Assembly: GCA_965235115.1 (NCBI GenBank)
Contig: OZ249436.1
Coordinates: forward strand, 16,804,001 to 16,868,000
Reading direction: 5' to 3'
Origin: Laetmonice hystrix
Lineage: Eukaryota
Length of the DNA: 64,000 nucleotides
Positions 1 through 64,000 of this stretch are shown piece by piece. The position numbers were made by a program, and so were the translations under genes. Below the pieces are notes generated by a model. That model saw nothing but the letters and a program-made list of their open reading frames with translations. It made no database searches and had not been told where the DNA came from. Numbering within the stretch: the first letter of the stretch is position 1; every line of letters starts with the position of its first letter.

Positions 1-68
1 CTTCCTCTCCCAGCCAGAAGGTGGTGCCACTGTTCCACAGGCTGAGGTCGGCGTCCGACGCCATCACC
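1..68 (-). CDS. Cadherin exon 23 (truncated by window)
   Basis: TTGACAG|-VMASDADLSLWNSGTTFWLGEE; phase 2 matches exon 22. Confidence 0.85.
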
Positions 69-3000
69 CTGTCAACAACGGTTTCTAACGTCACAATGCA
101 GATAAATAACGGTACACTGCAGATAAATAACGGTCTGTAACGTCACACTGCAGATAAATAATGGTTTATAACGTCACACTGCAGATAAACAGCAGTGAGG
201 ACGTAAGCATAAATCTGAAGATCCCAGTCGATTCGACGTGCGACTACTCTAGTCTCACAAAAATGAACGATCTTCCAAGAACATAAAAACATAACGCTTT
301 GTAAACAAATACGTGGAGTGAAATCGAATTGTAATTGTCAACACGCGTCTCTGCCACTGCACTGTGAACCTTATCTCTTGTGACTTTTTTCTTATCGTAG
401 AATGGTGGTGTTTGATAAACATGCACCTGCAGCCTGAGATAAGACAAACTGTCAGAAAAGGACAGTTTTTACCCGGCCTCAGTCACCGCTGACACGACCT
501 CAGTCAGTGCCGACACGACCTCAGTCAGTGCTGACACGACCTCAGTCACCGCTGACACGACCTCAGTCAGTGCCGACACGACCTCAGTCAGTGCTGACAC
601 GACCTCAGTCAGTGCTGACACGACCTCAGTCACCGCTGACACGACCTCAGTCAGTGCTGACACGACCTCAGTCAGTGCTGACACGACCTCAGTCAGTGCT
701 GACACGACCTCAGTCACCGCTGACACGACCTCAGTCAGTGCCGACACGACCTCAGTCAGTGCTGACACGACCTCAGTCACCGCTGACACGACCTCAGTCA
801 GTGCCGACACGACCTCAGTCAGTGCTGACACGACCTCAGTCAGTGCTGACACGACCTCAGTCACCGCTGACACGACCTCAGTCAGTGCCGACACGACCTC
901 AGCCAGTGCTGACACGACCTCAGTCAGTGCCGACACGACCTCAGTCAGTGAGGACACGACCTCAGTCAGTGCCGACACGACCTCAGTCAGTGCCGACACG
1001 ACCTCAGTCAGTGCCGACACGACCTCAGTCAGTGCCGACACGACTTCAGTCAGTGCCGACACGACCTCAGTCAGTGCCGACACGACCTCAGTCAGTGCCG
1101 ACACGACCTCAGTCAGTGCCGACACGACCTCAGTCAGTGCCAACACGACCTCAGTCAGTGCTGACACGACCTCAGTCACCGCTGACACGACCTCAGTCAG
1201 TGCTGACACGACCTCAGTCAGTGCTGACACGACCTCAGTCAGTGCTGACACGACCTCAGTCACCGCTGACACGACCTCAGTCAGTGCCGACACGACCTCA
1301 GTCAGTGCTGACACGACCTCAGTCACCGCTGACACGACCTCAGTCAGTGCCGACACGACCTCAGTCAGTGCTGACACGACCTCAGTCAGTGCTGACACGA
1401 CCTCAGTCACCGCTGACACGACCTCAGTCAGTGCCGACACGACCTCAGCCAGTGCTGACACGACCTCAGTCAGTGCCGACACGACCTCAGTCAGTGAGGA
1501 CACGACCTCAGTCAGTGCCGACACGACCTCAGTCAGTGCCGACACGACCTCAGTCAGTGCCGACACGACCTCAGTCAGTGCCGACACGACTTCAGTCAGT
1601 GCCGACACGACCTCAGTCAGTGCCGACACGACCTCAGTCAGTGCCGACACGACCTCAGTCAGTGCCGACACGACCTCAGTCAGTGCCGACACGACCTCAG
1701 TCAGTGTCGAGTCAGACCTCACGCAATCAGAACAGAAACAGCGACTACAGGATAGGCTTACATAGTTACACTAGCATATTGGACATCAGACTGTGACACT
1801 GTGGAAGGACATCTTAGTATGTATGACTCCATCCAGGTTTAGCATGTCAGTATCTGAAGGCGCTGTTTATAGAGATGCGGGAGTAGTACGAGAGTATGTA
1901 TAGCCACACAGATACGAGTAATACGGCAGTATGTTAGTATGGCCACGAGATACGAGTAGTACGGCCGTATGTTAGTATGATCAGAGATACGAGTAGTACG
2001 GCAATATGTTAGTATGGTCAGAGATACGAGTAGTACGGCAGTATGTTAGTGTGGTCAGAGATACGAGTAGTATACGGCAGTATGTTAGTATGATCAGAGA
2101 TACGAGTAGTACGGCAGTATGTTAGTATGGTCAGAGATACGAGTAGTACGGCAGTATGTTAGTATGGTCACAGAGATGCTAGTACGGCAATACGGTAGTA
2201 TGGTCACAGAGGGACAAGTAGTACAGCAGTATGTTACGGTTAGGATGTATCCCAAGCATCACTGTAGCCAGCGATCGTCAAAAGTAACGGTCGTACAATA
2301 TTTACCTGCACCCTCCTTGTAACTCTTGCTTTGTCCAAACTTTTAACCTGGTCGTAACATAATAACATCTAATCTTACCGGAGACACCACGTGCTGAATA
2401 CATCCCAATCATTCTGTCGGGGGGGGGGGGTTAGACGGGACAGGAATGTTACAACATGAGAAGGGAGTGGGCGGTGGCATACTAAACACAAGATACCAGA
2501 ACGGATTACTTATAAAGGGAGTGGGTGGTGGCATAGGCATACTAAACACAAGATACTAGAACGGATTACTTATAAAGGGAGTGGGCGGTGGCATACTAAA
2601 CACAAGATACCAGAACGGATTACTTATAAAGGGAGTGGGTGGTGGCATACTAAACACAAGATACCAGAACGGATTACTTATAAAGGGAGTGGGTGGTGGC
2701 ATACTAAACACAAGATACTAGAACGGATTACTTATAAAGGGAGTGGGTGGTGGCATAGGCATACTAAACACAAGAAACTAGAACGGATTACTTATAAAGA
2801 GAGTGGGTTGTGGCATACTAAACACAAGATACCAGAACGGATTACTTATAAAGGGAGTGGGTGGTGACATACTAAACACAAGATACTAGAACGGATTACT
2901 TATAAAGGGAGTGGGCGGTGACATACTAAACACAAGATACTAGAACGGATTACTTATAAAGGGAGTGGGCGGTGGCATACTAAACACAAGATACCAGAAC

Positions 3001-6000
3001 GGATTACTTATAAAGGGAGTGGGTGGTGGCATACTAAACACAAGATACTAGAACGGATTACTTATAAAGGGAGTGGGTGGTGGCATACTAAACACAAGAT
3101 ACCAGAACGGATTACTTATAAAGGGAGTGGGTGGTGGCATACTAAACACAAGATACTAGAACGGATTACTTATAAAGGGAGTGGGCGGTGACATACTAAA
3201 CACAAGATACCAGAACGGATTACTTATAAAGGGAGTGGGTGGTGGCATACTAAACACAATATACCAGAACGGATTACTTATAAAGGGAGTGGGCGGTGGC
3301 ATACTAAACACAAGATACTAGAACGGATTACTTATAAAGGGAGTGGGTGGTGGCATAAGCATACTAAACACAAGAAACTAGAACGGATTACTTATAAAGG
3401 GAGTGGGCGGTGGCATACTAAACACAAGATACTAGAACGGATTACTTATAAAGGGAGTGGGCGGTGGCATACTAAACACAAGAAACTAGAACGGATTACT
3501 TATAAAGGGAGTGGGCGGTGGCATACTAAACACAAGATACTAGAACGGATTACTTATAAAGGGAGTGGGCGGTGGCATACTAAACACAAGATACTAGAAC
3601 GGATTACTTATAAAGGGAGTGGGTGGTGGCATACTAAACACAAGATACTAGAACGGATTACTTATAAAGGGAGTGGGCGGTGGCATACTAAACACAAGAT
3701 ACTAGAACGGATTACTTATAAAGGGAGTAGGCGGTGACATATTAAACACAAGATACTAGAACGGATTACTTATAAATTAAGGGAGTGGGTGGTGGCATAC
3801 TAAACACAAGATACTAGAACGGATTACTTATAAAGGGAGTAGGCGGTGGCATAGGTACTAAACACAAGATAGCAGAACGGATTACAAATGTACTTATAAT
3901 CATACACAAACAAGCATCAAGTATGATACACTCATTCTATTGCCAGTTCTAGGCAGAGCGAACTACGTACGTATTTAAAATAATGCAAACTTTTGTTAAC
4001 TGAACTTTTTCAACTGTAAAATTAAATACATATTAGCGGGGGGAATATTTGGGGGTTCAGCTGGGCGGGTTTGGGACCAGCAGTGGGTGATCATGGTTCA
4101 GCGTACGTCGCGCCACCTACCTGAGAGCGGAGGAACCGACGGGGTGATTCTCGTAAATCAGGGCGCTGTAGACAGGCATGGAGAACACGGGCACGTGGTC
4201 GTTAACGTCCTGATGAAGGAGAGAGAAGGACGGAAAGCCAATGAGAATTAGTCTGTTGGGGATTTCCATACTGAGGGGAAGGCTGTCATTAACCAAAACA
4301 CCGAATCCAGACCCTGACCTTCTCATCCCCAACCACACACCCGCACTCACGCACGCGCCCTCACCCACCCCCACACCTAGGCGTCGGAACCAGGGGCAGG
4401 GGGCGGTACCGCGTCAGTGGAAAGGCGGCCTTAGCTGAAACTCATATTTATCTGCCATATATATCAGCCTATTTTGTGAATGCGTAGGGCAGAAGAGGAC
4501 CAGATTCGGTCCAGGCTGACTTCAGCCCCCCCCCCCCTGGAAAAAGTATCTTCCGACGCTACTGATGCCATGTAGGCCTACACACCCCCTCACTCACATT
4601 CAAATTTCAAACGTCAAGCTATCCTATAAATTTAGAGATTTAGAGTACGAACTATTCCACGATTGAAAGCTTGTTGCAAACTGACCTTAATTGTGACCAC
4701 CACGGCCACAGTTTTGTTCTGGATAGTGTCAAGGTCATACGGCCTCCTGTTGTAGGCTACCACCACCAGGTGGTGCTGGTGGTCCTGATCGATTGTGACG
4801 TCACGTCTGGTGTAGAGAACGCCATTGGTGGCGTCCACCGCGAATAGGTCGTGAGGCGCATGCGCGAGGACGTACTGAACGACGGCGTTGTCGCCCTCGT
4901 CGGGGTCGACGGCCTGCAACACCAACATCATCAATACCAAAACAACATCAGCAATAGGCCTACCAACACCAATATCAAGACCAAAATCAACACCACCATC
5001 AATATCATCCAATACCAACACCAACATCGTCAACACCAACACCACCATCAAAACGATGTCTTTAACGTGCACGTCTGTACCGATCAGATTCTGGGTACAA
5101 AGAGTGGTATGACATGGCCTTGGTCGAAAAACCGTGGTATGACATGGCCATCGTTAGAAAACCGTGGTATGACATGGCCATCGTTAGAAAACCGTGGTAT
5201 GACATGGCCATCGTTAGAAAACCGTGGTATGACATGGCCATCGTTAGGAAACCGTGGTATGACATGGCCATCGTTAGAAAACCGTGATATGACATGACCT
5301 TGGTCGAAAAACCGTGGTATAGGCTAGCTATATGACATGGCCATCGTTAGAAAAACGTGATAGATCTATGACATGGCCTTGGTCGAAAAACCGTGCTATG
5401 ACACGCGACCTTCGGTGGAAAACCGTGGTATCAAATGGCCTTCGTTGGAAAACTGACTGACCAAAAGTAAAATTCAACCAAAATTCAGCCAACGTGGACG
5501 TCTGCATGGTTTAGGCCTGATAAACGCGCGCCGGCGAAGTTCAGGTATAGTAATCACTATAGGGGGCGCGGACTAACCTGAAGCTGTAGGATTCCACTAG
5601 GGGGCGCTCGCTCCGCCACCGTCACCTGGTAAGATTCCCTCTCGAAGGTTGGCGGGTGGTCGTTGATATCGTACACAAGCACGGTAACTGTTACCATGGT
5701 ACTGAGGGGAGGGACGCCACCATCCTGGGCAACTACCGTCAACTGGTGGGAGGGCGCCACCTCGCGATCAAGTTTGGCAGCAGTGTGCATGGTGCCCGTG
5801 TCGGGGTCGATGCTGAAGTACTGCCCGGCCCTAAAACAACAATAAACTCGATGTGAACTCCACGACTATAATATCCCACCCTAAAACAACAACAAACTCG
5901 TGAACTCCACTCCTATAATATCCCACCCTAAAACAACACCAAACTCGCTATAAACTCCACTACGATAATATCCCACCCTAAAACAACAACAAACTCGTGA

Positions 6001-9000
6001 ACTCCACTACTATAATATCCCACCCTAAAACAACAACAAACTCTGTGAACTCCACTACTATAATATCCCTCCCTAAAACAACAACAAACTCGCTGTGAGT
6101 TTCACTACTATAATATCCCAGCCTGAAAAACAAGGTCAGGAGATCAGATGTTACCGATGGAGAGAAACTGTTACAAACCTTTTCACAACCAAGGTCTCAA
6201 TGTTAGTGGATTACACACTTGTGTAATCTTATGGTATGCAAATGGTTGTAAACAAATGGCGTGTTAAATGACACGGTTATAAACAAAGGTGTGTGGTCAC
6301 AATGAGGTTTAAATAACTGGTGGGGTTTACAGGAAGGTCATAAACAAATGTTGTGTGGTCACAATGAGGTAGTGGTAGAGAAAGCGGTGGTAGACAATGA
6401 CAGTGGTAAAGAATGGGGTGGTAGACAAGAACAGTGATAGAGAATGGGGTGGTAGACAATGACAGTGGTGGAGAATGGGGTGGTAGACAATGACAGTGGT
6501 AGAGAATGGGATGGTAGACGACAGTGATAGAGAATAGGGTGGTAGACAATGACAGTGGTAGAGAATAGGGTGGTAGACAATGACAGTGGTAGAGAATGGG
6601 ATGGTAGACAATGACAGTGGTGGAGAATGGGGTGGTAGACAATGACAGTGGTAGAGAATGGGGTTGTAGACGAGAACAGTTATAGAGAATGGGGTGGTAG
6701 ACAATGACAGTGGTAGAGAATGGGATGGTAGACAATGACAGTGGTAGAGAATGGGGTGGTAGACAATGACAGTGGTAGAGAATGGGGTGGTAGACAATGA
6801 CAGTGGTAGAGAATGGGGTTGTAGACGAGAACAGTGATAGAGAATGGGGTGGTAGACAATGACAGTGGTAGAGAATGGGGTGGTAGACAATGACAGTGGT
6901 GGAGAATGGGGTGGTAGACAATGACAGTGGTGGAGAATGGGGTGGTACACAATGACAGTGGTAGAGAATGGGGTGGTAGACAATGACAGTGGTAGAGAAT
7001 GGGGTGGTAGACAATGACAGTGGTAGGGAATGGGATGGTAGACAAGAACAGTGGTAGAGAATGGGGTGGTAGACAATGACAGTGGTAGAGAATGGGATGG
7101 TAGACAAGAACAGTGGTAGAGAATGGGGTGGTAGACAATGACAGTGGTAGAGAATGGGGTGGTAGACAATGACAGTGGTAGAGAATGGGATGGTAGACAA
7201 TGACAGTGGTGGAGAATGGGGTGGTAGACAAGAACAGTGGTAGAGAATGGGGTGGTAGACAATGACAGTGGTAGAGAATGGGGTGGTAGACAATGACAGT
7301 GGTAGAGAATGGGGTGGTAGACAATGACAGTGGTAGAGAATGGGATGGTAGACAATGACAGTGGTAGAGAATGGGGTGGTAGACAATGACAGTGGTAGAG
7401 AATGGGGTGGTAGACAATGACAGTGGTAGAGAATGGGGTGGTAGACAATGACAGTGGTAGAGAATGGGATGGTAGACAATGACAGTGGTAGAGAATGGGG
7501 TGGTAGACAATGACAGTGGTAGAGAATGGGGTGGTAGACAATGACAGTGGTAGAGAATGGGGTGGTAGACAATGACAGTGGTAGAGAATGGGATGGTAGA
7601 CAATGACAGTGGTGGAGAATGGGGTGGTAGACAAGAACAGTGGTAGAGAATGGGGTGGTAGACAATGACAGTGGTAGAGAATGGGGTGGTAGACAAGAAC
7701 AGTGGTTGAGAATGGGATGGTAGACAAGAACAGTGGTAGAGAATGGGGTGGTAGACAATGACAGTGGTAGAGAATGGGGTGGTAGACAATGACAGTGGTA
7801 GGGAATGGGGTGGTAGACAAGAACAGTGGTAGAGAATGGGGTGGTAGACAAGAACAGTGGCAGACAAGGAGGTGGTAGGTGGGCAAGGTGGTAGACAAGG
7901 TAATACATGTACTTTGCAAGGTGCACAGTTACAGACACAATACGCCCCAAATATTTCATATCAATCAACATGCTGATATTGGCAGATACCTGTCGCTGGA
8001 GTCAGGGATGGCGGGAACATCTGGGTTAGGTAGGATACCTGGGATAGGTGTGGGTACCTGGGTCAGGTGTGGGTATACCTGGGTCAGTTGTGAGAACCTG
8101 GGATAGGTGTGGGTACCTGGCTCAGGTGTAGGATTTCTGGGTCAGGTGTGGGAACCTAGAATAAGTGTGGGTACCTGGGGCAGGTATGGCTACCTGAGGC
8201 AGGTGTGGGAATCTGGGGCAGGTGTGGGTTCCTGGGGCAGGTGTGGGAATTTGGGGCAGGTGTGGGTTCCTGGGGCAGGTGTGGGAATCTGGGGCAGGTG
8301 TGGGTTCCTGGGACAGGTGTGGGTTCCTGGGGCAGGTGTGGGTTCCTGGGGCAGTTGTGGGAATCTGGGGCAGGTGTGGGTTCCTGGGGCAGGTGTGGGT
8401 TCCTGGGGCAGGTGTGGACCAGGGAAAGGATACCTGGATCAGAGGGTTGGGGTCATCTGGGTTACCCTGAGCAGGTTTGGGGTCGGGTGGACTGTACCTG
8501 GATCAGGTGGGTATACCTGGATGAGGTGGGTATACCTGGATCAGGTGGGACGCCAGGTGGGAGATATCTATGCCAGGACTCATGGACCAACACCAGTTTG
8601 ATAGAACCAGTCAGTGCAGAGACCGGTCCGGTCACTATGCGTGATTTCATCATTCATTGGCATTCTCATCGTGCAGTTCAAGTCACAGCAGAGCAGAGTT
8701 GTGACAGGCGTAACGCTATAATGACTTCTGTTAACCGTCATCACCCAGTAAAATTTCTCTAATCTCCGTCTCTTTTTTCTGGCATGAATATTCTGGAAAG
8801 TCAGCCGTCTGTCAGCACTCTGTCTACTGCTCATGTTGTGTGTTAGTTTGTGTTTTTATCGGGCAGTCTTAATGTTCGCACTTACAAAAACGTTACCAAG
8901 CAACCGGAGGCATCGCTACAAAAAAGGATAGAGTAATGGCGTCAAGAAAAGTCTACACAGGTCGAACAGACGCTGACTGAGTTAAACCTCACGTTGCTAG

Positions 9001-12000
9001 TTATAAATATCTAATTTTACCTATCATTAGAATATCCCATGTCTGAATTAAAACAAATAGGCTATAGTGTAACGTGAACCTACGGTAACTATAGCAACCA
9101 TTCAACCTCACCCATATATACCTTACAGCCACCACGAGGTGTCCCTCTCCTCCTGAAAAACCTACAGGGTTAAAAACTACGGGCAAATGAAGATCATCAC
9201 CTCAGAATTAATGATAATGATCAAATGTAAGTTGTTCCCTGAGAAGCCAAGTAAAGGTTGGGTCTGCCACTTACCAGTTGCCGCCCAGCAGGTATTTTAA
9301 CTCCCCGTTGTACCCGGCGTCACCGTCGGTCGCCTGAAACACCAACACAGACAGGTCTTACGGCGTGAGTCGATAGGTGGCGTAATTAGGCTCTTCCATA
9401 GCCAGGTTTGACACCGTCGCAGGAGTCAATAGGTGCCACCAGGCCTTTCCACAGGCAGGTCTGACAGCAGTCGATAGGTGGCGCCAGGCTCTTCCACAGA
9501 CAGGTCTTATGGTGGAAGCCGGTAGGTGGCGCCAGGCCCTTCCACCGACAGGTCTGACGGTGGGAGCCGGTAGGCGGCGCCAGACTTTTCCACAGCCAGG
9601 TTTGACACTGACGCGGGAGTCAATAGGTGGAGCCAGGCTCTTCCACAGAGAGGTCTTACGGCGGGAGCCGGTAGGTGGCGCCAGGCTCTTTCACAAACAG
9701 GTCTGACAGGAGTCGATAGGTGGCGTCAGGCTCTGCCACACAGACAGGTCTGACAGCCGATAGATGGCGCTAGTGCCTTCAAGACAGCCAGTAGGCCTAC
9801 AGTGAAACAGTCTAGACAGACAGGTCCTGTGGGAGCCGATAAGTGGCGCCAGTGTAACACAGCCAGGTACAACCACTATTGCGTTGGATTTTGGCGACTT
9901 ATAAATTGACGTCCGTCTATTCGTCAGTTGTCCCCGTATTGCAAATACAGCAGTAATTGTGATGCCACCTGTCGGCCAGGTTCGCAGCACTGTATCTGGA
10001 AGAGGTAGCCTCCTAGCGCTGGTTTTGCACACTAATATTCTGTGAGCATTCAACATACATTTTGCCTGAGCTGTTGGACACACTACGGCAAGTGGCCGCA
10101 CGATCGAGTTACCTCCCTGAACATATTAACTTGGTACATTTTAGTACAGCCCCGTTTATACGTTACATATGGTATTCTTGACCTTACCTTGACCTGGCCG
10201 AGCCGCTGTCCGATTGGCATCTCTTCCCACACCCAGAACGTGTAGTCGGCCTCCCCAAACACAGGCGGGCTGTCATTGGTGTCTTCCACCCTCACAAACA
10301 CCACTGTCTGGGCCGTCTGAAACACCAACAACGGTTACTAACACATTAACACATGCTGCCAAAGCAGAACTGAAGGAAGTACACGTAATTAGAAGGTGGG
10401 GGATATCGCCTTGGTAACATCTTCTCCCACCGTTACCATAGTTACAACCCCAGCTACCATGGTTACAACCCTGCTGTGACCTACATGAATTCCATCGGTG
10501 ACTGTGACCTTGAGATTGTAGACGCTCGTGACCTCGCGGTCCAGAGGACGCCACAAGGTCAGTGCCCCACTGTTGCCATGGAGCAGGAACTGGTTGCCAT
10601 GGTCACCGTCAATAAGGTGGTAGGTGAGGTCAGATCCGTCTTCATCAGTCGCCTACAAACAGTAATCAGATTATCTGGTTTGTTATAAAAATGTCACATT
10701 TAAATTATTCTTCACTTTAACATACCATCACAGAGTTGTGTCAGTCAGATAAAGCGGTCAGTCTGGCTGAACATACCTGGAGCTCACAGAGCTATCAGTC
10801 AGATAAAGCGCTCAGTCTGGGTGGACATACCTGGAGCTCACAGAGCTGTGTCAGTCAGGTAACGCGCTCAGCCTGGGTGGACATACCTGGAGCTCACAGA
10901 GCTGTGTCAGTCAGGTAAAGCGCTCAGTCTAGGTGGACATACCTGGAGCTCACAGAGCTGTCAGTCAGATAAAGCGCTCAGTCTGGGTGGACATACCTGG
11001 AGCTCACAGAGCTATCAGTCAGATAAAGCGCTCAGTCTGGGTGGACATACCTGGAGCTCACAGAGCTGTCAGTGAGATAAAGCGCTCAGTCTGGGTGGAC
11101 ATACCTGGAGCTCACAGAGCTGTGTCAGTCACATAAAGCGCTCAGTCTGGGTGGACATACCTGGAGCTCACAGAGCTGTCAGTGAGATCAAGCGGTCAGT
11201 CTGGGTGGACATACATGGAGCTCACAGAGCTGTCAGTCAGATAAAGCGCTCAGTCTGGGTGGACATACCTGGAGCTCACAGAGCTGTGTCAGTCACATAA
11301 AGCGCTCAGTCTGGGTGGACATACCTGGAGCTCACAGAGCTGTCAGTCAGATAAAGCGCTCAATCTGGGTGGACATACCTGGAGCTCACAGAGCTGTCAG
11401 TCAGATAAAGCGCTCAGTCTGGGTGGACATACATGGAGCTCACAGAGCTGTGTCAGTCAGGTAACGCGCTCAGTCTGGGTGGACATACCTGGAGCTCACA
11501 GAGCTGTCAGTGAGATAAAGCGCTCAGTCTGGGTGGACATACCTGGAGCTCACAGAGCTGTCAGTCAGATAAAGCGCTCAGTCTGGGTGGACATACATGG
11601 AGCTCACAGAGCTGTGTCAGTGAGATAAAGCACTCAGTCTGGGTGGACATACATGGAGCTCACAGAGCTGTGTCAGTGAGATAAAGCACTCAGTCTGGGT
11701 GGACATACATAGAGCTCACAGAGCTGTGTCAGTCAGATAAAGCGCTCAGTCTGGGTGGACATACATGGAGCTCACAGGGCTGTGTCAGTCAGATAAAGCA
11801 CTCAGTCTGGGTGGACATACCTGGAGCTCACAGAGCTGTCAGTCAGATAAAGCGCTCAGTCTGGGTGGACATACCTGGAGCTCACAGAACTGTCAGTCAG
11901 ATAAAGCGCTCAGTCTGGCTGGACATACCTGGAGTTGGATGACGGTTGTGCCGTAAGACGACGCCTCGTTCACACTGGCCGAGTACGGTTCACCCTCAAA

Positions 12001-15000
12001 CTCTGGCGGGTGGTCGTTACCAGATAATACTGTTATGTTCACCATAGCGACTGCCGTCCTAGAGTACACATATACAAACTGTGTCAGAAAGCATTCAAGT
12101 CATTTAGATGATCATTCGTTTTTCTACACTTTAAGCTCTGGACCAAAGAAATGGTAACGGCTGAGAGGATAGCTCTGGTTCTACTTTAAAAGATCCTTGT
12201 CTGTCGTTGAGAAGACCGATATGTGGCCTTGTGGGGTGACTTATGCCTTATGAGGTCAGTATATGTCCCTGCGTACGCTGGTCAATATGAGATATCTCAC
12301 CTTGTGAGGTCAGAATTGGCCGGCTGGTCACTGGCCTGGACGGTAAGTATAAATGTGTGAGTCAGGGACTCAGCCAGTGACCTCTGAACATATAACCAGC
12401 CAGTGGACGAGTCCAGGCCAAAATACGTGGTTGCTCCATGGGTCCCGAACAGGATGGAGTACGTCACCCGGCCGTACGGACCTTGGTCCGCGTCCACGGC
12501 AAACACCTGGAACGTGAGGGTTAGAATTCAGACACCTGGAACATGAGAGTTAGAATTTCATACACCTGGGTGCGTTCCACAACTTGTCGTTAGCTTGTCG
12601 TATCGTAAACATCAATGTATTTTCAATGGGGATTTTTTTCGCACGACAGGGTTGCGATTGTTGTGAAAGGCACCCCTGGAATATGGGGATCATACACCTG
12701 TTGGAAGGGGTACTGACCTGTCCGACCACAGCGTCACGGGGGGCCGACCTGTTGACCAGGTAGGTGTAGGTGTTGGAGGGCGGACTCACCTGTCCAACCA
12801 CAGCGTCACGGGGGGGGGGGGCGACCTGTTGACAAGGTATAGGTGTAGGTGTTGGAGGGGGGACTCACCTGTCCAACCACAGCGTCACGGGGGGGGGCGA
12901 CCTGTTGACCAGGTAGGTGTAGGTGTTGGAGGGGGTACTGACCTGTCCGACCACAGCGTCACGGGGGGGCCGACCTGTTGACCAGGTACGTGTAGGTGTT
13001 GGAGGGGGTACTGACCTGTCCGACCACAGCGTCACGGGGGGCCGACCTGTTGACCAGGTAGGTGTAGGTGTTGGAGGGGGGACTCAACTGTCCAACCACA
13101 GCGTCACGGGGGGCCGACCTGTTGACCAGGTACGTGTAGGTGTTGGAGGGGGTACTGACCTGTCCGACCACAGCGTCACGGGGGGCCGACCTGTTGACCA
13201 GGTACGTGTAGGTGTTGGAGGGGGTACTGACCTGTCCGACCACAGCGTCACGGGGGGCCGACCTGTTGACCAGGTACGTGTAGGTGTTGGAGGGGGGACT
13301 CACCTGTCCGACCACAGCGTCACGGGGGGCCGACCTGGTGACCAGGTACGTGTAGGTGTTGGAGGGGGGACTCACCTGTCCAACCACAGCGTCACGGGAG
13401 GCCGACCTGTTGACCAGGTAGGTGTAGGTGTTGGAGGGGGTACTCACCTGTCCGACCACAGCGTCACGGGGGGCCGACCTGTTGACCAGGTAGGTGTAGG
13501 TGTTGGAGGGGGTACTCACCTGTCCGACCACAGCGTCACGGGGGGCCGACCTGTTGACCAGGTAGGTGTAGGTGTTGGAGGGGGTACTCACCTGTCCGAC
13601 CACAGCGTCACGGGGGGCCGACCTGTTGACCAGGTACGTGTAGGTGTTGGAGGGAGTGAAGACTGGGCTGTTATCGTTGACGTCCTCTAACCACACGTAC
13701 ACGTTGGCCGCCTGGCTTCGATACCGTTCAGCCGTCACACTCTCCTGCGCGTATACCTGGTGAACATGGGGGAACGTTAGGGAATCAATGAGCCGGTATG
13801 GGGGAAACACTGAGTCGGTATGGGGGAAACACTGAGCCGGTATGGGGGAAACACTGAGCCGGTATGGGGGAAACACTGAGCCTGCCTGGGGGAAACACTG
13901 AGCCGGTATGGGGGAAACACTGAGCCGGTATGGGGGAAACACTGAGCCTGCCTGGGGGAAACACTGAGCCGGTATGGGGGAAACACTGAGCCGGTATGGG
14001 GGAAACACAGGGAAGATATATAATAGAAGGGAGAAATAGTATTCAGGTGCGAGGGAGATTGAGATACGTACCTTGAGGAGCAGGTAGTCGGTGACCTCCT
14101 TGTCGAGGCCGGAGCTGTTTGTGACGAACACCATACCAGTGGTATCCTCCACCGCGAACGGTCCGCCCGACCCTTCCATCACGTATTCTAACTCGGCGTT
14201 AGTCCCCTGAAAACGGTCAGATATTATATCAGTGTCCGCTGAAAACGGTCAGATATTATATCAGTGTCCCCTGAAAACGGTCAGATATTAAATCAGTGTC
14301 CCCTGAAAACGGTCAGGTATCATATCAGTGTCCTCTGAAAACAGTCAGATATCATATCTGTGTCCCCTGAAAACGGTCAGATATCATATCAGTGTCCCCT
14401 GAAAACGGTCGGATATTATATCAGTGTCCCCTGAAAACGGTCAGATATTATATCAGTGTCCCCTGAAAACGGTCAGATAATTATTATATCAGTGTCCCCT
14501 GAAAACGGTCAGATATCATATCAGTGTTCCCTGAAAACGTGACCTGGCCCACCCTGCACTTACCACATCATATTGTGACCCGACCCACCTTGCACTACCC
14601 ACATCATTGTGTGGCTCATCTTGTACTTACCACGGTATTGCAGGCACGTACCCAGGATTGTGCTTAGAGGGGGGGTTCCATCAGGACAAGAGGGCTGCCC
14701 GGGGGGCCACCTGTGTTTTTGCACCAGTCGACCTGGGGACCGGAGGGGGCCGGGGGGGGGGGGTTCCGGAACCCCTGGAACCCCCCCCCCTGGGTACGTG
14801 CCTGGTATTGTGACCCACCCGATACTCACCACATCATTGTCGGTGGCGCGGACCTGTACCACCCTGTAGCCGACAGGAGAGTGTTCAGGAATGGTGACGT
14901 TGTAGATGAGACGCTCCATCTGAGGCGGGTGAATGTTAGCGTCCTCAACACTCACGATCAGGGTGGCTGTGCTGTAACGGTTCCTCGGGTTGTCCAACTG

Positions 15001-18000
15001 GTACGCCTGTCAATCACACGTCAATCAACCGTCACTCACACATCAATCACACACCAGTTAACCATAAATCAACCCGGCATAAAACTGGTACGCCTGTCAC
15101 TAACACGTCAATCAACCATCACTCGCACATCAATCACACATCAGTTAACCATAAATCAACCCATAAAACTGGTACGCCTGTCAATCACACGTCAATCAAC
15201 CATCACTCGCACATCAATCACACATCAGTTAACCATAAATCAACCCATAAAACTGGTACGTCTGTCAATCACACGTCAATCAACCGTCACTCACACATCA
15301 ATCACACATCAGTTATCCATCAATAAACAATCAGAGTCGGTCAACTTTCATAAGTTATGATATTATCATGGCCCTTATTTTAAGATTGATACATGATATA
15401 TGAGTTACTCTATGTATGATAGTGTTACAGGTGTTCTGCCGCCAGAGGATGCAGTTAATGAGATGATGATGGTGATCAGCTGACCTTGATGGTGATGATG
15501 AACTGAGCCCTGGCGGCTCGGTCCAGGATGTGACGTGGTAATACGAGCCCACTCGAGTGGTCAAGGTCAAAATACGTCACGCCGTCATGGGTGTGACCTG
15601 AAACAGAACGTAGTCACACGTCATACTACGTCACATTACGTCATACTACGTCATCACTACCAATCCAAGCCCCTCTCGTTAATCCTCAAGGTTACCTCCA
15701 TTCGCTCCATTAGGTCATATATAATATGTTAATATAATACTCGGTCAAGTTAATATGTCAAGTTTTGACCTTTGACTGGCTCACCTCCTTCTGCCTCGTA
15801 TCCCACGGTGGCATTAATGCCAAGGTCAAGGTCAAATGCCTGGATTGGTGGATGAGTCCGAAATACTTGGTCAATGATGCTGTAATTCTGCCGGTGAACA
15901 CAACGTGAAGGTGGAATGAACAACTGTTTGTAACCTCGATTTAATGGTTTCAAACCAGCCAGGATTAAACTGATCTAACATTCACAGACAAGGACCTTTG
16001 ATAGACATCTAAACTGTTCATAACTTTTACAAACTATCAGATATTTTTAAAGCTTTCAAAAAATATTTATGATCCCATTACTTCTCGGTATCTGTGGATG
16101 AATGAGCCAAGTAATGCCAGGCTGGTCTGTTCTGGTAACGACAGGTAGTTTACATAATGCCAGGTGTACCTGTTCTGGTAATGACAGGTAGTTTACGTAA
16201 TGCCAGGTGTACCTGTTCTGGTAACGACAGGTAGTTTACATAATGCCAGGTGTACCTGTTCTGGTAATGACAGGTAGTTTACGTAATGCCAGGTGTACCT
16301 GTTCTGGTAACGACAGGTAGTTTACATAATGCCAGGCTGGTCTGTTCTGGTAACGACAGGTAGTTTACGTAATGCCAGGTGTACCTGTTCTGGTAATGAC
16401 AAGTAGTAGACGTCCTCAGTGAATGCCGGGTTCTGATCGTCGCCGTCCGTCACGCTGAGAAACACCTGGGTCCAGTTAGAAAGGGGCGGCTCCCCCGTGT
16501 CCTATACAAGAAATTATCTTGGTCATACATTTCTTGGGGTTGGGACGTTTGTAAACAACACGTGGGGACCGCAGTCAGACACTTACTGTAGTTGTAACGT
16601 TGAGTACAAACACGTGCGGACCACAGTCAGACACTTACTGTGGTTGTAACGTTGAGTACAAACACGTGGGGACCGCAGTCAGACACTTACTGTGGTTGTA
16701 ACGTTGCGTACAAACACGTGGGGACCGCAGTCAGACACTTACTGTGGTTGTAACGTTGAGTACAAACACGTGGGGACCGCAGTCAGACACTTACTGTGGT
16801 TGTAACGTTGAGTACAAACACGCGGGGACCGTAATCATAGTCGAGTTTTTGTTGAAGTACAATAGCGCCCTCTGATGCCCCGCCCGTCATGGCGAACACA
16901 CCGCCCCCTGTTGTCTGAAACCACAACAAACCACAGTTCCCAATCGCTGGTGGTAGACGGGGGTGATACGTAATTATCCAGTAAGGGAGGGGGGCTGATC
17001 CTTCACAGGACTCCATGTTTAAAACTTACGAAAAATTTCAGAAAACATAAAACATAACACATTCATGAGTTTGAATTCTGTGCTCTGGGGTTTTAAAAAT
17101 TTAATTCTATGATTCCTCCTGCCCTCAACTCCAAGTTTCCCATTGGTTGTGCCCGACAGAAGGAGGTCGCAGCAAGTGGGGTCAGAGAAACGCTGACCTA
17201 CCTGAAGGTCATACCCGGCGATGCCACCGTCCACGTCGCCGTCGGTCGCCAACCCTCGCAGTGTGAACACGGTGGTGTAGACCGGAGTCAACTACACAAA
17301 GGTCAAACAGGGGTCAGGTCACCAGCTAACTCATACCACTCCTACTCACATCTATACGTCTACCCACTTATTTCAAGTGTATAGATATTCCATTCATATG
17401 TTGTTGACCGTTTGTTGGTCCTAGTTTCAGCCACGGCGCGGCTCTCTCCATACTCACCTCGTTGATATTTTTGAGGTAGGGGGCACACAGGAAGTAGGGG
17501 GCCTTATTGTTGACATCTTCAATGGCCACTCGGACGTCAGAGGTGACCTTAGAACACAGTTCAAGAGTTTTTACTGTCACACTTACATCACATATAAGGG
17601 ACACCCTAATAACGTCTTTCTGCTATGTGGTATCAGTGATATTTCTAAACTTACATCGTGGTTAACATGTTTTATACAGACTAGGTGATGGGTTTAGACT
17701 CTCACCTGGACCACGTCCCCACTGTGTAAGACCTCACACCTCAGGATCACTTGGATGGCTTTGATGGACACCTGGCGACAGAAAACGGCACCACGGACTT
17801 ACTTCAGACACACAGACAGGTATAAACTGACGTTAACACTCAGACAACTCTGTGATTTAGCGGTTACTTCCGTCTGCGGATTGACTTACAGGGGTGGAGG
17901 TGTCCGTGGATTGACTTACAGGGGTAGAGGTGTCTGAGGATTGAGTTACTGGAGTGGAGGTGTCCGAGGATTGACTTACCGGGGTGGAGGTGTCTGAGGG

Positions 18001-21000
18001 TTGACTTACAGGGGTGGAGGTGTCCGAGGATTGACTTACCGGGGTGGAGGTGTCTGAGGGTTGACTTACAGGGGTGGAGGTGTCCAAGGATGGACTTACC
18101 GGGGTGGAGGTGTCCGAGGATTGACTTACCGGGGTGGAGGTGTCTGAGGGTTGACTTACAGGGGTGGAGGTGTCCAAGGATGGACTTACCGGGGTGGAGG
18201 TGTCCAAGATTTGACTTACCGGGGTAAAAGTGTCCGAGGATTCACTTACCGGGGCGGAGGTGTCCGAGGATTGACTTACCGGGGTGGAGGTGTCCGAGGA
18301 TTGACTTACCGGGGTGGAGGTGTCTGAGGATTGACTTACCGGGGTGGAGGTGTCTGAGGATTGACTTACAGGGGTGAAGGTGTCTGAGGATTGACTTACC
18401 GGGGTGGAGGTGTCTGAGGATTGACTTACTGGGGTGGAGGTGTCTGAGGATTGACTTACTGGGGTGGAGGTGTCCGTGGATTGACTTACCGGGGTGGAGG
18501 TGTCTGAGGATTGACTTACTGGGGTGGAGGTGTCTGAGGATTGACTTACTGGGGTGGAGGTGTCTGAGGATTGACTTACCAGGGTGGAGGTGTCTGAGGA
18601 TTGACTTACTGGGGTGGAGGTGTCTGAGGATTGACTTACCGGAGCGGAGGTCGGCCGTCTGGTGTAGTCACAGCTCAACTGTTCGTTAGTGTTCGGTATG
18701 ATCTGCAAATAGACAACACGTACGTGACCGATACCTATCGGGTGTTAGAAACAAGACATCTTTTGAACGTGATCCTAGGTCTCAATTTGAAGAAGGAATT
18801 CTCTACTCATTGCGCCCATCACTAGGCGCGTTGGGTGAAACTCACTTCTTGAAAAAGGAGGGACCAAGAGATTTCTCTCTAATTGAAGAAGAAGAGAACA
18901 TGCATATGGCTGGTATCACTGACCGGGTCTGTGCGAGGGTTGAGGAGGTTCAGATCTAGACTCCGTGACAGGATGATTTGGTAGGCCCGCGCTCCTGTCT
19001 GACGTAGACTCAGGTAACCTTGGAACCGACTTGTGTACGGCGAGTCCAGCTGGATGCTCCGAGCAGAGGACTCAAACGTGAACAGGACCGAGCCTGGAAA
19101 TGGAAACATTTTGTGGTACAGTTGTGTTTTGAGGTCTGTGAAGATAGTCACTTATTCCATACTCCCGATTCGACCCCGAGGTTGGATTTCTTTGAGTGGG
19201 CGCCAGGCGCATATGCCCCAGTCCCATATAAGCACGGATGGACACGGCAGTCCCGGAAAGTGCCGGATCCCGCCGGATCAACATCCGGGACGATCCGTGC
19301 TCTTTTGGGGGTTTTTGAGCGTCGACGGTCGTCCAACGACCATCACGCCGGTGGCAACACGGCAGCACGGCAGCACGACGAACCCGTACAAACACGGAAA
19401 AACACGGCAGCAACACGACAGAGACACGGGCAGCCCCGGATAAACACGGACCAACACGGCATCTACACGGACCATCCCGGACCTACACGGCGATCCATGA
19501 CCTCGGGGTCGAATCGGGAATAAGGAATAAGTAACTAACTTCCCAGACCTCGTGTTCTTGAGGACTTTGTGATGTCTTACATTAAGATATAAAATAATCA
19601 GACAGACGAACGGAGATAGTTTTTGTAGGCCCACAAGACCGTAGAACTTTGGCTACATTTATCAGTCACAGCATGTCAAACGTTGGGGGGGGGGGTTAAT
19701 GCTCCGATTTGTTTTTCATGGAATTGGTTTCAGTAATGACTATATAATTAGTAATTTCCTAGAGATGTTTATTTATTTGGATTCCGAAACAAGGCAGTAT
19801 AGGGTAGTGTCGAGGCACATGAATGGTGTACGCATTTTACATCGCGATGTCCCCCATGTACAAACATGTATACTCTAGGCCAACTAAAGCCGGGAACACA
19901 TCTGATGCGATGCGACGCGATTATGAAAAGCTCCTAATGGAACACACCTGAAGCTGTACGTCGCTGGACCTTCAGGTGTGTTCACACTCGCTGAAAACAA
20001 TTAGGAGCTTTTCATAATCGCGACGCATCGCGTAGCATTGCGTCAGGTGTGTTCTCCGCTTAATCAGTGCTTCTCATTCCATCCCTCCCCCACCAAACCT
20101 CACTCATTTACTAGTAATTAGACACTTACTTTCCCCCACAGGATGTTTATACCGTTACCATGAAAACACCAACATGGAAACCCTAGAAGTAGCCCTGCCT
20201 TGGCATTTTTACTAGTTGCCATGGCGACGGCAACGTGACACCTGTTTCTATGCCGCCTCATTAAAATTCCAGGTAATGGTTGAATAGCAATGACCACAGC
20301 CGGTAGGTTATCAAAGTCACCGGTTGGTAAAACATGCCTGCGCACCTCAGCGTACAACTCTAGTTCTATAGGCCTGCAGCAATCAGAAACGTTCACTTGA
20401 CCACCACGTGAGACCCGTGAAATTAGCGTGATCTACATTCCGGCCAAACATCTGTTCATTCTATAGATGTTCAAACTGTAGATCTACAACTATTATAGTA
20501 ATAGTGGTGTCCATTTCATAAAACACGTCTTGATGTTACTGTAACGTTACCGTAAACGACGTCACCTGACGTGATACATGGCGTAACCCTTACGTTATTA
20601 ATTGTGACGTCATAGGTGACTACTTACCGACCGGTGTGTTCTCGGGTTCCTCCGTGTAGAGTGACGGGCACGGATTCTGTTGACCTAAAACACAAAGTAT
20701 CGAGGTAAACGGTCAGCACTGGCGGGGTATACTGTTAAAATGTAGGCCTACAGTAAACTATTGATGACCACTCAAAGGTCAGCACTGGCGGGATCTACTG
20801 TTAAAATGTAGGACTACGGTAAACTGCTGATGTCTACTCAACGGTCAGCACTGGCGGGATCTACTGTTAAAATGTAGGACTACGGTAAACTGCTGATGTC
20901 TACTGAACGGTCAGCGCTGGCGGGATCTATTGTTAAAATGTAGGACTACGGTAAACTGCTGATGTCTACTCAACGGTCAGCACTGGCGGGATCTACTGTT

Positions 21001-24000
21001 AAAATGTAGGACTACGGTAAACTGCTGATGTCTACTGAACGGTCAGCGCTGGCAGGATCTACTGTTAAAATGTAGGACTACGGTAAACTGCTGATGTCTA
21101 CTGAACGGTCAGCGCTGGCGGGATCTATTGTTAAAATGTAGGACTACGGTAAACTGCTGATGTCTATACTGAATGGTCAGCACTGGCGGGATCTACTGTT
21201 AAAATGTAGGACTACGGTAAACTGCTGATGTCTACTGAACGGTCAGCACTGGCGGGATCTACTGTTAAAATGTAGGACTACAGTAAACTATTGATGACCA
21301 CTGGACGGACTGGGTGTATTCAATGTTAAAAGAGTGATGAATAAAGCGACACAGTCTGCCGTGACCGCAAGCAACCAGAGGGCCCACCTAACGGGCTACG
21401 CATCCTTATAGTTATCAAATACAACACTAGGTGGCTGTCAGCATGTTTTTAGGGACGACAGGTTCGCTTTAAATTATATCATCAGTCGGGTTAAAGGGTT
21501 ATATCATTTTATCTTCCTGCGAGTCAAGTATGTACACTGTTCGAAGGTACTGAGACGAAAATGATATTTTAAGATATACATTATCATCAGGTGTTGCTAC
21601 TTATTTAGGATCCATCAGTGCCGGATTATTAATGGCAAATAGTTAACTCGTAAAGTAAATTAACCATGTTTACCCGAGCCATACTTTAGCGAACTGACGT
21701 AACCGTTCATATATCAAGGAAATTTGCAATTAATCAACTTTAGATAAAGATGCTGTAAAAAGCAATGAATGCTGTTTATGAATCCTCACATTGTATAACC
21801 AGTATAACACATCGTGTGTGCGCCAACAGTTCGTCCAGGGTACTGGAGGTCAGGGTGGGTCGATGATCCGACCTGGTCGACGGGGTGGGGGTTAGGGGTA
21901 ACTAACATTGACACAGCCGGGGTAACAACACATTCAGACCTGGCCGGGATCAATCAAGTTATTAGTCACCCTTTCTACCTGTCATCCCCCCAACCCTACC
22001 CTTTATACATCCTTCGTCCCAACAAATCGTTTCCCTTGGTCCTATCTAACACCATATTTGATATTATCTTTAGTGAATACTGTTTTGAAGAATTTTCATC
22101 CTCAGTCGTCAACAAAACTATTCCATAACATGATAATTTTAATGCAAGCTAACATAACGACAGAACTATGCTGTGTCAAGTCGGTTGACTTTGGAACGTG
22201 GGAAAAGTGAGAGGGTTCATTGAGAACATTGTGGTCAGTCGTCCGTGACGGCTGCGGTCCGATTGTACGAGTCACAATGGGGTCTGTGGACTGTGACGTC
22301 ATAGACAAACAGGTGTCGCGGTGGCTGGGGAGGTGATCACAGGTACAGAGGCAGAACCAAGTACTCGGTGCATACCGGCCCATGAGATCACAGGTACAGA
22401 GAGAGGGAACCCAGTACTCGGTGTATACCGGCCCATGAGATCACAGGTACAGAGACAGGGAACCCAGTACTCGGTGTATACCGGCCCATGAGATCACAGG
22501 TACAGTGACAGAACCCAGTACTTGGTGTATACCGGCCCATGGGATCCCAGGTACAGAGAGAGAACCAAGTACTTGGTGTATACCGGCCCATGAGATCACA
22601 GGTACAGAGACAGAACCAAGTACTCGGTGTATACCGGCCCATGGGGGCAGGTACAGAGAGAGAACCAAGTACTCGGTATATACCGGCCCATGAGATCACA
22701 GGTACAGAGACAGAACCCAGTACTTGGTGTATACCGGCCCATGAGATCACAGGTACAGAGACAGAACCCAGTACTTGGTGTATACCGGCCCATGGGATCC
22801 CAGGTACAGAGACAGAACCAGTACTCGGTGTATACCGGCCCATGGGATCCCAGGTACAGAGAGAGAACCAGGTACTCGGTGTATACCGGCCCATGAGATC
22901 ACAGGTACAGAGACAGAACGAAGTACTCGGTGTATACCGGCCCATGAGATCACAGGTACAGAGACAGAACCAAGTACTCGGTGTATACCGGCCCATGAGA
23001 TCCCAGGTACAGAGAGAGAGAACCCAGTACTCGGTGTATACCGGCCCATGGGATCCCAGGTACAGAGAGAGAACCCAGTACTCGGTGTGTACCGGCCCAT
23101 GAGATCCCAGGTACAGAGACAGAACCAGTACTTGGTGTATACCGGCCCATGGGATCCCAGGTACAGAGAGAGAACCCAGTACTCGGTGTGTACCGGCCCA
23201 TGAGATCACAGGTACAGAGACAGAACCAGTACTCGGTGTGTACCGGCCCATGAGATCACAGGTACAGAGACAGAACCCAGTACTTGGTGTATACCGGCCC
23301 ATGTGATCCCAGGTACAGAGAGAGAACCCAGTACTCGGTGTATACCGGCCCATGGGATCCCAGATACAGAGACAGAACCAGTACTCGGTGTGTACCGGCC
23401 CATGAGATCACAGGTACAGAGACAGAACCAGTACTCGGTGTATACCGGACCATGAGATCACAGGTACAGAGAGAGAGAGAACCCAGTACTCGGTGTATAC
23501 CGGCCCATGAGATCACAGGTACAGAGACAGAATGAAGTACTCGGTGTATACCGGCCCATGAGATCACAGGTACAGAGACAGAACCCAGTACTTGGTGTAT
23601 ACCGGCCCATGGGATCCCAGGTACAGAGACAGAACCAGTACTCGGTGTATACCGGCCCATGGGATCCCAGGTACAGAGAGAGAACCAGGTACTCGGTGTA
23701 TACCGGCCCATGAGATCACAGGTACAGAGACAGAACGAAGTACTCGGTGTATACCGGCCCATGAGATCACAGGTACAGAGACAGAACCAAGTACTCGGTG
23801 TATACCGGCCCATGAGATCCCAGGTACAGAGAGAGAGAACCCAGTACTCGGTGTATACCGGCCCATGGGATCCCAGGTACAGAGAGAGAACCCAGTACTC
23901 GGTGTGTACCGGCCCATGAGATCACAGGTACAGAGACAGAACCAGTACTTGGTGTATACCGGCCCATGGGATCCCAGGTACAGAGAGAGAACCCAGTACT

Positions 24001-27000
24001 CGGTGTGTACCGGCCCATGAGATCACAGGTACAGAGACAGAACCAGTACTCGGTGTGTACCGGCCCATGAGATCACAGGTACAGAGACAGAACCCAGTAC
24101 TTGGTGTATACCGGCCCATGTGATCCCAGGTACAGAGAGAGAACCCAGTACTCGGTGTATACCGGCCCATGGGATCCCAGATACAGAGACAGAACCAGTA
24201 CTCGGTGTATACCGGCCCATGAGATCACAGGTACAGAGACAGAACCAGTACTCGGTGTATACCGGACCATGAGAGGCCCAATGTCCCCCTCACCCGCCCC
24301 AAACCGTCCTTGACTATAAACAGCTCGGTTTACTACTCGCCGTTTAAGGTTGAGTTACTCATAGCTATTTACGAGGAGCACTTTGGAATCATTCAAGGGG
24401 TACACAAACATTGTTGTACAGGGCACTCAGTCACTGTCTCCAACCAACAACCTCAACCTTCTTTACCCCACGTCCACCCTCCTCGCGACCAGCACACCTA
24501 GCCAACCCCCGAGGTCGGCGCCACCTATCATACAAGAGGCCAGGCCCCACACCCACCATCTCCACATCATCTTGACCCTCATACAAGAGGCCAGGCCCCA
24601 CACCCACCATCTCCACATCATCTATCACTTCATACAAGAGGCTAGGCCCCACACCCACCATCTCCACATCATCTATCACCTCATACAAGAGGCTAGGCCC
24701 CACACCCACCATCTGCACATCATCTATCACCTCATACAAGAGGCTAGGCCCCACAACCACCATCTGCACATCATCTATCACCTCATACAAGAGGCTAGGC
24801 CCCACACCCACCATCTGCACATCATCTATCACCTCATACAAGAGGCTAGGCCCCACACCCACCATCTGCACATCATCTATCACCTCATACAAGAGGCCAG
24901 GCCCTCACAATAACAATCTCCACATAATCTATCACCTCATACAAGAGGCCAGGCCCCCACAATAACGATCTCCACATCATCCATCACCTCATACAAGAGA
25001 CAGGCCCCACAATAACCATCTCCACATCATCCATCACCTCATACAAGAGACAGGCCCCACAATAACCATCTCCACATCATCAATCACCTCATACAAGAGA
25101 CAGGCCCCACAATAACGACCTCCACATAATCTATCACCTCATACAAGAAGCCAGACTCCACACTAACGATCTCCACATTATCTGGACCCAATCCATCAAA
25201 AGTGTCATTTTAAATTTCATGACCGTTACCATCAATTTCAAACAAATTTAAATAGCAGCAACAATACAGGTTGAGTAAAAAAACGCTCCTTTTTATTTCG
25301 TATTTTTCCCCTCGAAATATAAAAAAATGATTCTACATCTTGTCGGACCTCGAGACCGGCGGCGTTTTGCTGATTGCCGATTTATATAATCAATTAAGGT
25401 CATGGAGGTTTCCAAGATATGTAAAGTTTTTTTTTCTTTTGTCAACTGACGAGGACATATTGATATATCACAGATCACAGTTTACAAACTGGTTGCCATG
25501 GTAACTCAGTAAAGCGTACAAGGCTGGATCAGTAATACGCTGGAACCCTTCACTCCGCGAAGCCTGTGACCAGCCTGCCGTACCGGGTTTTCTCACAGGG
25601 TTACGAAGTTATGACAGGTATGCATGTGTGAGGGTGACCCCCCACACCCTAGCACCCCTACACCCCCCCCCCCCCCCTCACACCCCCAACCACAAGCATG
25701 GCCGACCACAACAATCACAGCCGACCACGTCACGTGACCCGACCGCAGTCACGTCACCTTGGCTCGGGTCAGGCGTCAAGGGTCAAAGACACCGACTGCC
25801 CGTGGACTGGATCGGTGTATCCCGCCCCTACCATAGGATTCACACCCCTACCATGGGATTTACACCCCTACCATAGGATTCACACCCCTACCGGATGGTG
25901 CAAGCCCCTACCATTGGATTCACGTCCCTGCCATGGGATTCACACCTCTACCATTGGATTCACGTCCCTGCCATGGGATTCACACCTCTACCATATGTTC
26001 ACACCCTTACCGTACGATTCACACCCCAAACTATAGGGCTGACAATAACAATATACAATATTATACAATACAATACACCCCACCCCACCCCAATGACACC
26101 CCACCTCCAGGGCTAATACCCAACCTCCAGGGCTGGCATCCAACCTCCAGGTCTGACACCCCACCTCCAGGCCTGACACCCCACCTCCAGGCCTGACACC
26201 CCACTTCCAGGGCTGACACCCAACCACCAGGACTGACACCCCACCTCCAGGGCTGACACCCAACCTCCAGGGCTGACACCCCGCCTCCAGAGCTGACACC
26301 CCACCTCCAGGGCTGACACCCCACCTCCAGGGCTGATACCCCGCCTCCAGAGCTGACACGCCACCTCTAGGGCTGACATCCAACCACCAGGACTGACACC
26401 CCACCTCCAGGGCTGACATCCAACCTCCAGGGCTGACACCCCACCTCCAGGGCTGACACCCCGCCTCCAGAGCTGACACCCCACCTCCAGGGCTGACACC
26501 CCACCTCCAGGGCTGATACCCCGCCTCCAGAGCTGACACGCCACCTCTAGGGCTGACATCCAACCACCAGGACTGACACCCCACCTCCAGGGCTGACATC
26601 CAACCTCCAGGGCTGACACCCCACCTCCAGGCCTGCACCCCACCTCCAGGGCTGACACCCCACCTCCAGGGCTGACACCCCACCTCCAGGGCTGACACCC
26701 CACCTCCAGGCCTGACACCACGCCTCCAGGGCTGACATCCAACCTCCAGGTCTGACACCTCAACTCCAGGCCTGACACCTTACCTCCAGAGCTGACACCC
26801 CACCTCCAGGGCTGACATCCAACCTTTAGGGCTGACACCCCACCTCCAGGGCTGATACCCCACCTCCAGAGCTGACACCCCACCTCCAGGGCTGAGATCA
26901 AAGTTTCATGAGTTCAACCCCGAGTGGTATGGTGACTCACTGAGCGGCAAACAAGTGTCACGTGTCAATCCTTGGATCAATTCCTCTCTCCCGCCAGGGA

Positions 27001-43524: not shown

Positions 43525-64000
<20,476 letters not shown>

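Follow-up and report, generated by a model that had tools for sequence, protein, structure and literature searches.

The host cadherin gene and its exon 14 array

The window, a 64,000-nucleotide stretch of the Laetmonice hystrix assembly GCA_965235115.1 (contig OZ249436.1, positions 16,804,001 to 16,868,000), contains a cadherin gene on its minus strand (Table 1) and, on the plus strand, an ADAMTS-like gene (47306-64000) with metalloprotease and TSP1 motifs and a Thr-rich insert at about 62739-62918. The latter gene, which we take to resemble ADAMTS2/3/14, gave no match in an exon search. In the cadherin gene model, all borders of the 23 placed exons are AG/GT, the leader is hydrophobic, and use of the donor at 13591 leads to a cadherin-23-like protein with an uninterrupted frame; the number 14 that the original prediction had given to the exon adjoining the array holds in this model. 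A first cadherin search returned one match among 25 candidates. Putative orthologues, in the sense of the best collinear matches among the fetched proteins, were found in Tubulanus (XP_074649083.1, 37% identity), a Branchiostoma hybrid (XP_078576868.1, 37%), Haliotis (XP_067672062.1, 35%) and Lingula (XP_013401573.1, 34%). All four are giant cadherin-23-like or 'Fat 4-like' proteins collinear with the gene over about 800 aa; the relatives carry 24-31 cadherin repeats, with a PCDH15-like membrane-proximal domain in three of the four that were scanned, where it follows 25-31 repeats. DNA contigs contain two haplotypes of the region, which differ at 12001-12121, 12220, 12417 and 12423, and both differences in exon 15 are synonymous.

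Table 1. Features of the cadherin locus, with positions in the window
Feature	Position	Strand	Remarks
Host gene, of which the window contains 23 exons	1..27147	-	signal-peptide-like start; 960 aa stop-free; extends past the window's left end
Exon 14, 165 nt, phase 0/0	13592..13756	-	covers the last part of EC4, the DVNDNSPVF linker and the first part of EC5; EC numbers inferred from linker motifs
Authentic donor CAG|GTGAGT (predicted)	13586..13594	-	first intron base 13591; collinear stop-free protein, top matrix score
72-bp tandem array, exon end plus 12 intronic copies	12699..13654	-	TRF
Copies 1-8, 72 nt each	13016..13591	-	in frame, stop-free; donors 13519, 13447, 13375, 13303 = GTGAGT; 13231, 13159, 13015 = GTCAGT; 13087 = TT
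Copies 9-12	12718..13015	-	73, 74, 79, 72 nt; homopolymer runs 7, 9, 12, 6; TGA at 12959-12961; donors 12942 (+73), 12868 (+74), 12789 (+79), 12717 (+72) beyond the stop
19-nt tail, likely to be the former start of the intron	12699..12717	-	14/19 match to exon 72 nt upstream of donor; candidate slippage seed
Exon 15, carries EC5 on in frame (VFAVDAD...)	12301..12506	-	PF00028, E 3.7e-9
108-bp non-autonomous DNA element (MITE)	12568..12675	.	16-bp imperfect terminal inverted repeats, CTG flanks; very high copy in the genome
29-bp x 2.3 repeat across the exon 15 acceptor	12503..12569	-	12535 may be a second acceptor (+29 nt, shifts the frame); CTAAC branch motif at 12520-12524
Companion array of 30-bp units (x 26) at the exon 4 donor	17872..18651	-	all 26 donor-like sites in frame; read-through (VSQSSDTSTP-type units) stop-free
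Further arrays across cadherin exon borders	16557-16831, 16112-16407, 14996-15328, 14202-14539, 10739-11934, 5829-6133	.	periods 52, 43, 84, 32, 54, 50

The array at the end of exon 14 has the composition that had been predicted for it, as both TRF (13.1 copies, period 72, 94% matches) and the alignment of the units bear out: its 72-bp unit, in 13 copies, combines 63 nt from the end of exon 14 with the first 9 nt of intron 14. Compared with the last 72 nt of exon 14, the unit is identical at 66/72 positions, and five of the six mismatches fall within its first 9 nt. On the minus strand, GGACAG precedes each of the 13 donor-like sites, which follow one another every 72 nt from the authentic one to 13015 and then at the altered spacings of the distal copies. 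The unit has no second locus elsewhere in the window. The 24-aa peptide encoded by the copies varies between VSTP, VSPP and LSPP forms, with one RSAS and one VTRS. Frame shifts in the distal copies had been ascribed to changes in G-run length; the run lengths do differ, but in the 79-nt copy 2 nt are inserted on top of the 12-base run.

An assembly artefact, or homopolymer errors that merely mimic the distal frameshifts, is barely credible as an explanation. Runs of 7-12 G are error-prone, and a 10-G variant seen in one run is absent from the assembly. However, individual copies are distinguished by patterned substitutions of their own, and DNA contigs (three DNA-like runs from one sample, perhaps the assembly's own) pile up on the one-unit stretch far above the flank, at a depth that is not a copy number; short contigs cannot count copies. 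The contigs of one run also include a 9-G variant exactly as in copy 10.

Donor strength, reading frame and coding constraint

By sequence, the 12 extra sites comprise six GTGAGT, five GTCAGT and one TTGAGT, the last being the site at 13087, which had rightly been described as lacking GT. When 39 real donors are ranked on a small local matrix, 11 of the 12 score no lower than their 82nd percentile. GTCAG is itself the modelled donor at 4/39 borders (18923, 15484, 4685 and 63310), and thus donors with C at +3 seem functional in this organism. Given these scores and this use of GTCAG, the extra donors are not dead, and the notion that selection has destroyed them was rejected. Four units are predicted to fold more weakly than all 200 shuffles (z = +2.9), so that no RNA hairpin would mask the donors.

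Frames that continue into exon 15 from any of the seven GT sites as far as 13015 are open, in agreement with the seven in-frame and stop-free extra donors that had been listed. The four distal donors would instead yield a premature stop, since the read-through frame ends at the TGA in copy 9; at 12868 the frame is restored by length, yet this site too lies beyond the TGA. The further claim, that use of downstream donors adds n x 24 aa in frame, is correct as arithmetic but not as a constant peptide. The repeated segment runs from after the DVNDNSPVF linker to GQ; with domain numbers counted from linker motifs, it presumably corresponds to strand A plus the first half of strand B in the EC5 fold.

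These sites could be regarded as a regulated donor series producing cadherins with 0-8 extra glycosylated spacers of 24 aa between EC4 and EC5, and with 10-aa Ser/Thr/Pro spacers at exon 4, thereby tuning the length or stiffness of the molecule. This reading, which appears highly improbable, draws on the seven strong in-frame donors, on the N-glycosylation sequon that is present in 8/9 of the repeated segments following the exon's own, and on the confinement of frameshifts to distal copies. Indeed, all length changes are distal while the eight proximal copies preserve the frame, which counts against a merely tolerated repeat; the same polarity would be expected if leaky frameshifts were selected against. 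The exon 4 array is likewise open, across all its 26 donors, and this counts against an open frame by chance.

Several observations argue in the opposite direction. In particular, when 3n units with 9 intron nt were simulated from the donors of the cadherin gene, 316/399 (79%) were stop-free, and the open frame of the 72-bp array is therefore near chance expectation; it can be considered a by-product of a unit that is 3n long and mostly exonic. Periods divisible by three are found in 4/11 border-spanning arrays vs 21/44 other arrays (Fisher P=0.74). Among the 72-nt copies, 4/8 substitutions are synonymous against an expected share of 0.27 (P=0.14, on few sites), three of the 12 copies are frame-shifted, and no significant protein-level constraint is evident in the copies. 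When six donor arrays were checked, those of exon 14 and exon 4 read through and four stopped within 20 codons, namely three of the five cadherin donor arrays and the ADAMTS donor array. The insert would, moreover, split the B strand region.

Other cadherins were compared as well. None of the Tubulanus, Branchiostoma, Lingula and Haliotis proteins has a 24-aa repeat at the exon 14/15 junction; in total, all 8/8 aligned relatives are collinear there, with no 24-aa insert, in line with splicing at 13591. Isoform differences in three orthologue clusters all fall elsewhere than at this junction. A tandem copy at a cadherin linker was found once among 2343 linkers in 165 fetched proteins, in a predicted model whose cluster-mate has no such copy, and this rarity speaks against the regulated series.

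The protein with this one copy is the lancelet-hybrid dachsous-like XP_078684144.1, in which a 29-aa tandem duplicate lies at about residues 528-585, at the same EC place, and is lacking in the B. belcheri cluster-mate; duplication of a small exon may account for it, or an error of the gene model.

Structure prediction was also considered. AlphaFold2 gave a repetitive beta structure for exon 14 plus four copies (pLDDT 67.7, 55.0, 34.3, 29.8 and 29.4 in five models), and this model had no PDB match at E<=0.001. The beta fold was rejected as evidence, since a control consisting of a translated intergenic minisatellite of the window scored higher (pLDDT 77.9; five models 70-78), and AlphaFold2 is known to give such folds for repeats (PMC11795689).

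Origin of intron 14

Apart from the array, intron 14 holds the MITE and the 29-bp acceptor repeat. Over the MITE the summed contig depth is 1e5-2.6e5 vs 48-70 in the flank, and the element sits inside a degenerate extra copy of the acceptor repeat. A CWG target has been described for NuwaI/PHIS elements (PMC4482050), a candidate family for this CTG-flanked element. Once the 12 units and the MITE are subtracted, what is left of the intron is 103 nt, for the most part copies of the acceptor repeat. This scarcity of unique sequence counts against an intron that existed before the array.

The original prediction had presented the array as a substrate of the tandem-duplication model of intron gain. 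In this model (Rogers; PMC3443670), a purely exonic segment with AGGT is duplicated and one of the copies provides the acceptor. The likeness lies in the duplicated AG|GT sites at fixed spacing; in contrast, the unit here includes 9 nt of intron, the working acceptor is not part of the array, and neither a purely exonic unit nor an acceptor end resembling the exon end was found. The link to the model is thus a loose one: the intron is almost entirely repeat and MITE and its spliced junction reads CAG|GTG, but the unit contains an existing donor where the model needs a purely exonic segment.

A birth of intron 14 in this way would require that a 72-nt exonic stretch with CAG|GTG at its end was tandemly duplicated, that the first copy became an intron, and that this intron expanded and gained the MITE and a new acceptor. 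Besides the junction and the 103 nt, it is favoured by the exon sequence 72 nt upstream, which starts GTC in the donor register and matches the 19-nt tail at 14/19 positions, and by the fact that the first duplication, if unspliced, would have been in frame. However, an equal 14/19 match in its own exon is found for one of 17 array-free donors, and only 4-5 of the 9 intronic nt of the unit match the exon in register. The acceptor end shows no similarity to the end of exon 14, as 92% of 2000 shuffles align equally well. This unrelated end, together with a canonical branch motif (CTAAC at -18 of the real acceptor), makes the acceptor look older than the array, the units of which are about 94% alike. 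In addition, the lancelet dachsous model repeats 29 aa that end at the same EC position, which hints, at the protein level, at an exon border there in other cadherins. Birth of the intron by duplication is accordingly considered unlikely, with odds well on the low side. A search for orthologous DNA in metagenomes returned three loci, all belonging to other cadherins.

It had also been proposed that each CAG|GT could act as donor or acceptor. The first half of this proposal stands for 11 of the 12 extra sites, which are strong donors, while as acceptors they are poor. If 13591 were spliced to a CAG of the array, this would just regenerate a donor, as in recursive splicing. Recursive (ratchet) splice points would remove the array stepwise and leave the mRNA unchanged, and every site indeed has the required form of an AG followed by a strong donor. 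Yet most of the CAGs score 4.9 as acceptors and three score 6.2, where real acceptors have a lower quartile of 5.5 and a median of 6.6; their 5/11 pyrimidines equal the lowest value among 37 real acceptors; and no YTRAY motif is present in the 44 nt upstream of the CAGs. An intron of 1.1 kb has no need of recursive splicing. Stepwise removal therefore has very little probability.

Border-spanning repeats as a probably tolerated class

The closest counterparts of the array are the 'mirages', minisatellite-like duplications of exon-intron borders in the lancelet genes for Adh3, troponin C, globin (BflGb6/BflGb9) and PGBD5, which are reported to leave splicing undisturbed (PMC3087553, PMC3902484); that mirages could seed new introns has already been proposed (PMC3087553). 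The array described here shares their structure. It is a head-to-tail repeat of minisatellite size, its unit spans the exon-intron border with the authentic exon 14 copy as terminal unit, and many, although not all, copies keep splice signals (11/12 extra sites with GT). As in amphioxus, several border-spanning arrays occur at one locus, and the unit sizes of 10-72 bp that are quoted for Adh3 include the 72 bp found here. The differences are that the unit is 3n long and 88% exonic, so that seven extra donors are in frame, and that the host is no lancelet, its protein being 37% identical to the Branchiostoma orthologue. Neither a translated mirage ladder nor annelid mirages were found among the matches listed in the literature search, which left most subscription papers outside its scope.

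Two human genes provide precedents for the choice among repeated donors. In the 37-bp VNTR of F7 intron 7 (PMC1557585), the downstream donors are functional and yet only the most upstream one is used, even where later ones keep the frame. The resemblance is close, with a first unit that spans the donor and identical pseudo-donors downstream, but the unit here is 72 nt long and in frame, the extra sites number 12, and first-donor use, shown for F7, is inferred here. In the 25-bp VNTR of ABCA7 intron 18, the donor of the second unit serves in 2 +/- 1% of transcripts, which retain one unit (PMC5954066). There too the repeat begins at the donor and a second donor is usable, but in ABCA7 the frame is lost and the product is liable to decay, whereas the product here would be in frame. 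Repeats at exon borders accompanied by alternative transcripts have also been reported for human genes in segmental duplications (PMC2812944).

All in all, the 72-bp array is probably a mirage minisatellite that grew on an already existing intron and is tolerated there, with at most a minor leak. The first copy may have been made when the intron start slipped against, or exchanged unequally with, the exon sequence 72 nt upstream that it imperfectly matches over 19 nt. The 14/19 match of the tail is a plausible seed for this event, while edge erosion could yield the same picture. Later unequal exchange would have enlarged and homogenised the array. By analogy with F7, the spliceosome would pick the most upstream donor, at 13591, so that the array would leave with the intron and the normal cadherin would be made. 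That both the F7 and the ABCA7 precedents are mammalian counts against this explanation.

A leak to the second donor at a few percent, adding 72 nt, is plausible and would represent noise. Being in frame, the resulting transcript should not be degraded and would escape nonsense-mediated decay. Its product would have a surplus A/B-strand segment, bearing an NRS sequon, after the calcium-binding linker of EC4/EC5 and ahead of the rest of EC5, and the EC4/EC5 junction would probably be loosened. A minor +72-nt isoform is hence a plausible expectation, while a regulated ladder is not supported.

On the preferred reading, the array is another clean example of a little-known but already described type of repeat that is common in this genome. 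It has modest value as a natural test in an invertebrate spliceosome, as mammals have already been tested with F7 and ABCA7. In particular, ordinary RNA reads would gauge how strict the choice of the first donor is among 12 near-identical donors, because the downstream in-frame products escape nonsense-mediated decay. There is only a very slight chance that genomic repeat number and donor choice, acting at two donors with 24-aa sequon units at EC4/EC5 and 10-aa Ser/Thr/Pro units in EC1, together determine how long and how flexible the adhesion rod is. If they did, this would be the first case of a mirage with demonstrated translation and regulation, and a new way for an adhesion protein to vary in length.

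A similar situation is present at other borders of the window. Tandem repeats make up 41% of it, in 55 merged arrays of which the 72-bp array is one, and 15/22 cadherin introns contain such an array. Copies of a border's own 16-nt junction are found in the adjoining intron at 10/78 borders (7/44 cadherin, 3/34 ADAMTS), as compared with 1/2888 foreign pairs in the control, and the 72-bp array is therefore not special in the window. These 78 borders include those of the ADAMTS model, which is rough, with two acceptors off AG and exons not in one frame; the two were dropped from the acceptor matrix (37/39). In the two genes, 11/37 arrays span a border vs 4.85 expected (P=0.005 under a rough placement null). 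Since 4/11 overlap the exon by merely 2-6 nt and the null is rough, the excess at borders is read as at most twofold; such as it is, it weighs against a merely tolerated repeat.

The ADAMTS-like gene has a donor array of 41 bp at 63281-64000 and an acceptor array of 71 bp x 13.5 at 53271-54234, every unit of which also contains GTGAGT. Arrays of 19-21 bp lie at 8036-8417, 26094-26895 and 28766-29167, the latter two sharing their unit and flanking exon 1 of the cadherin gene on both sides.
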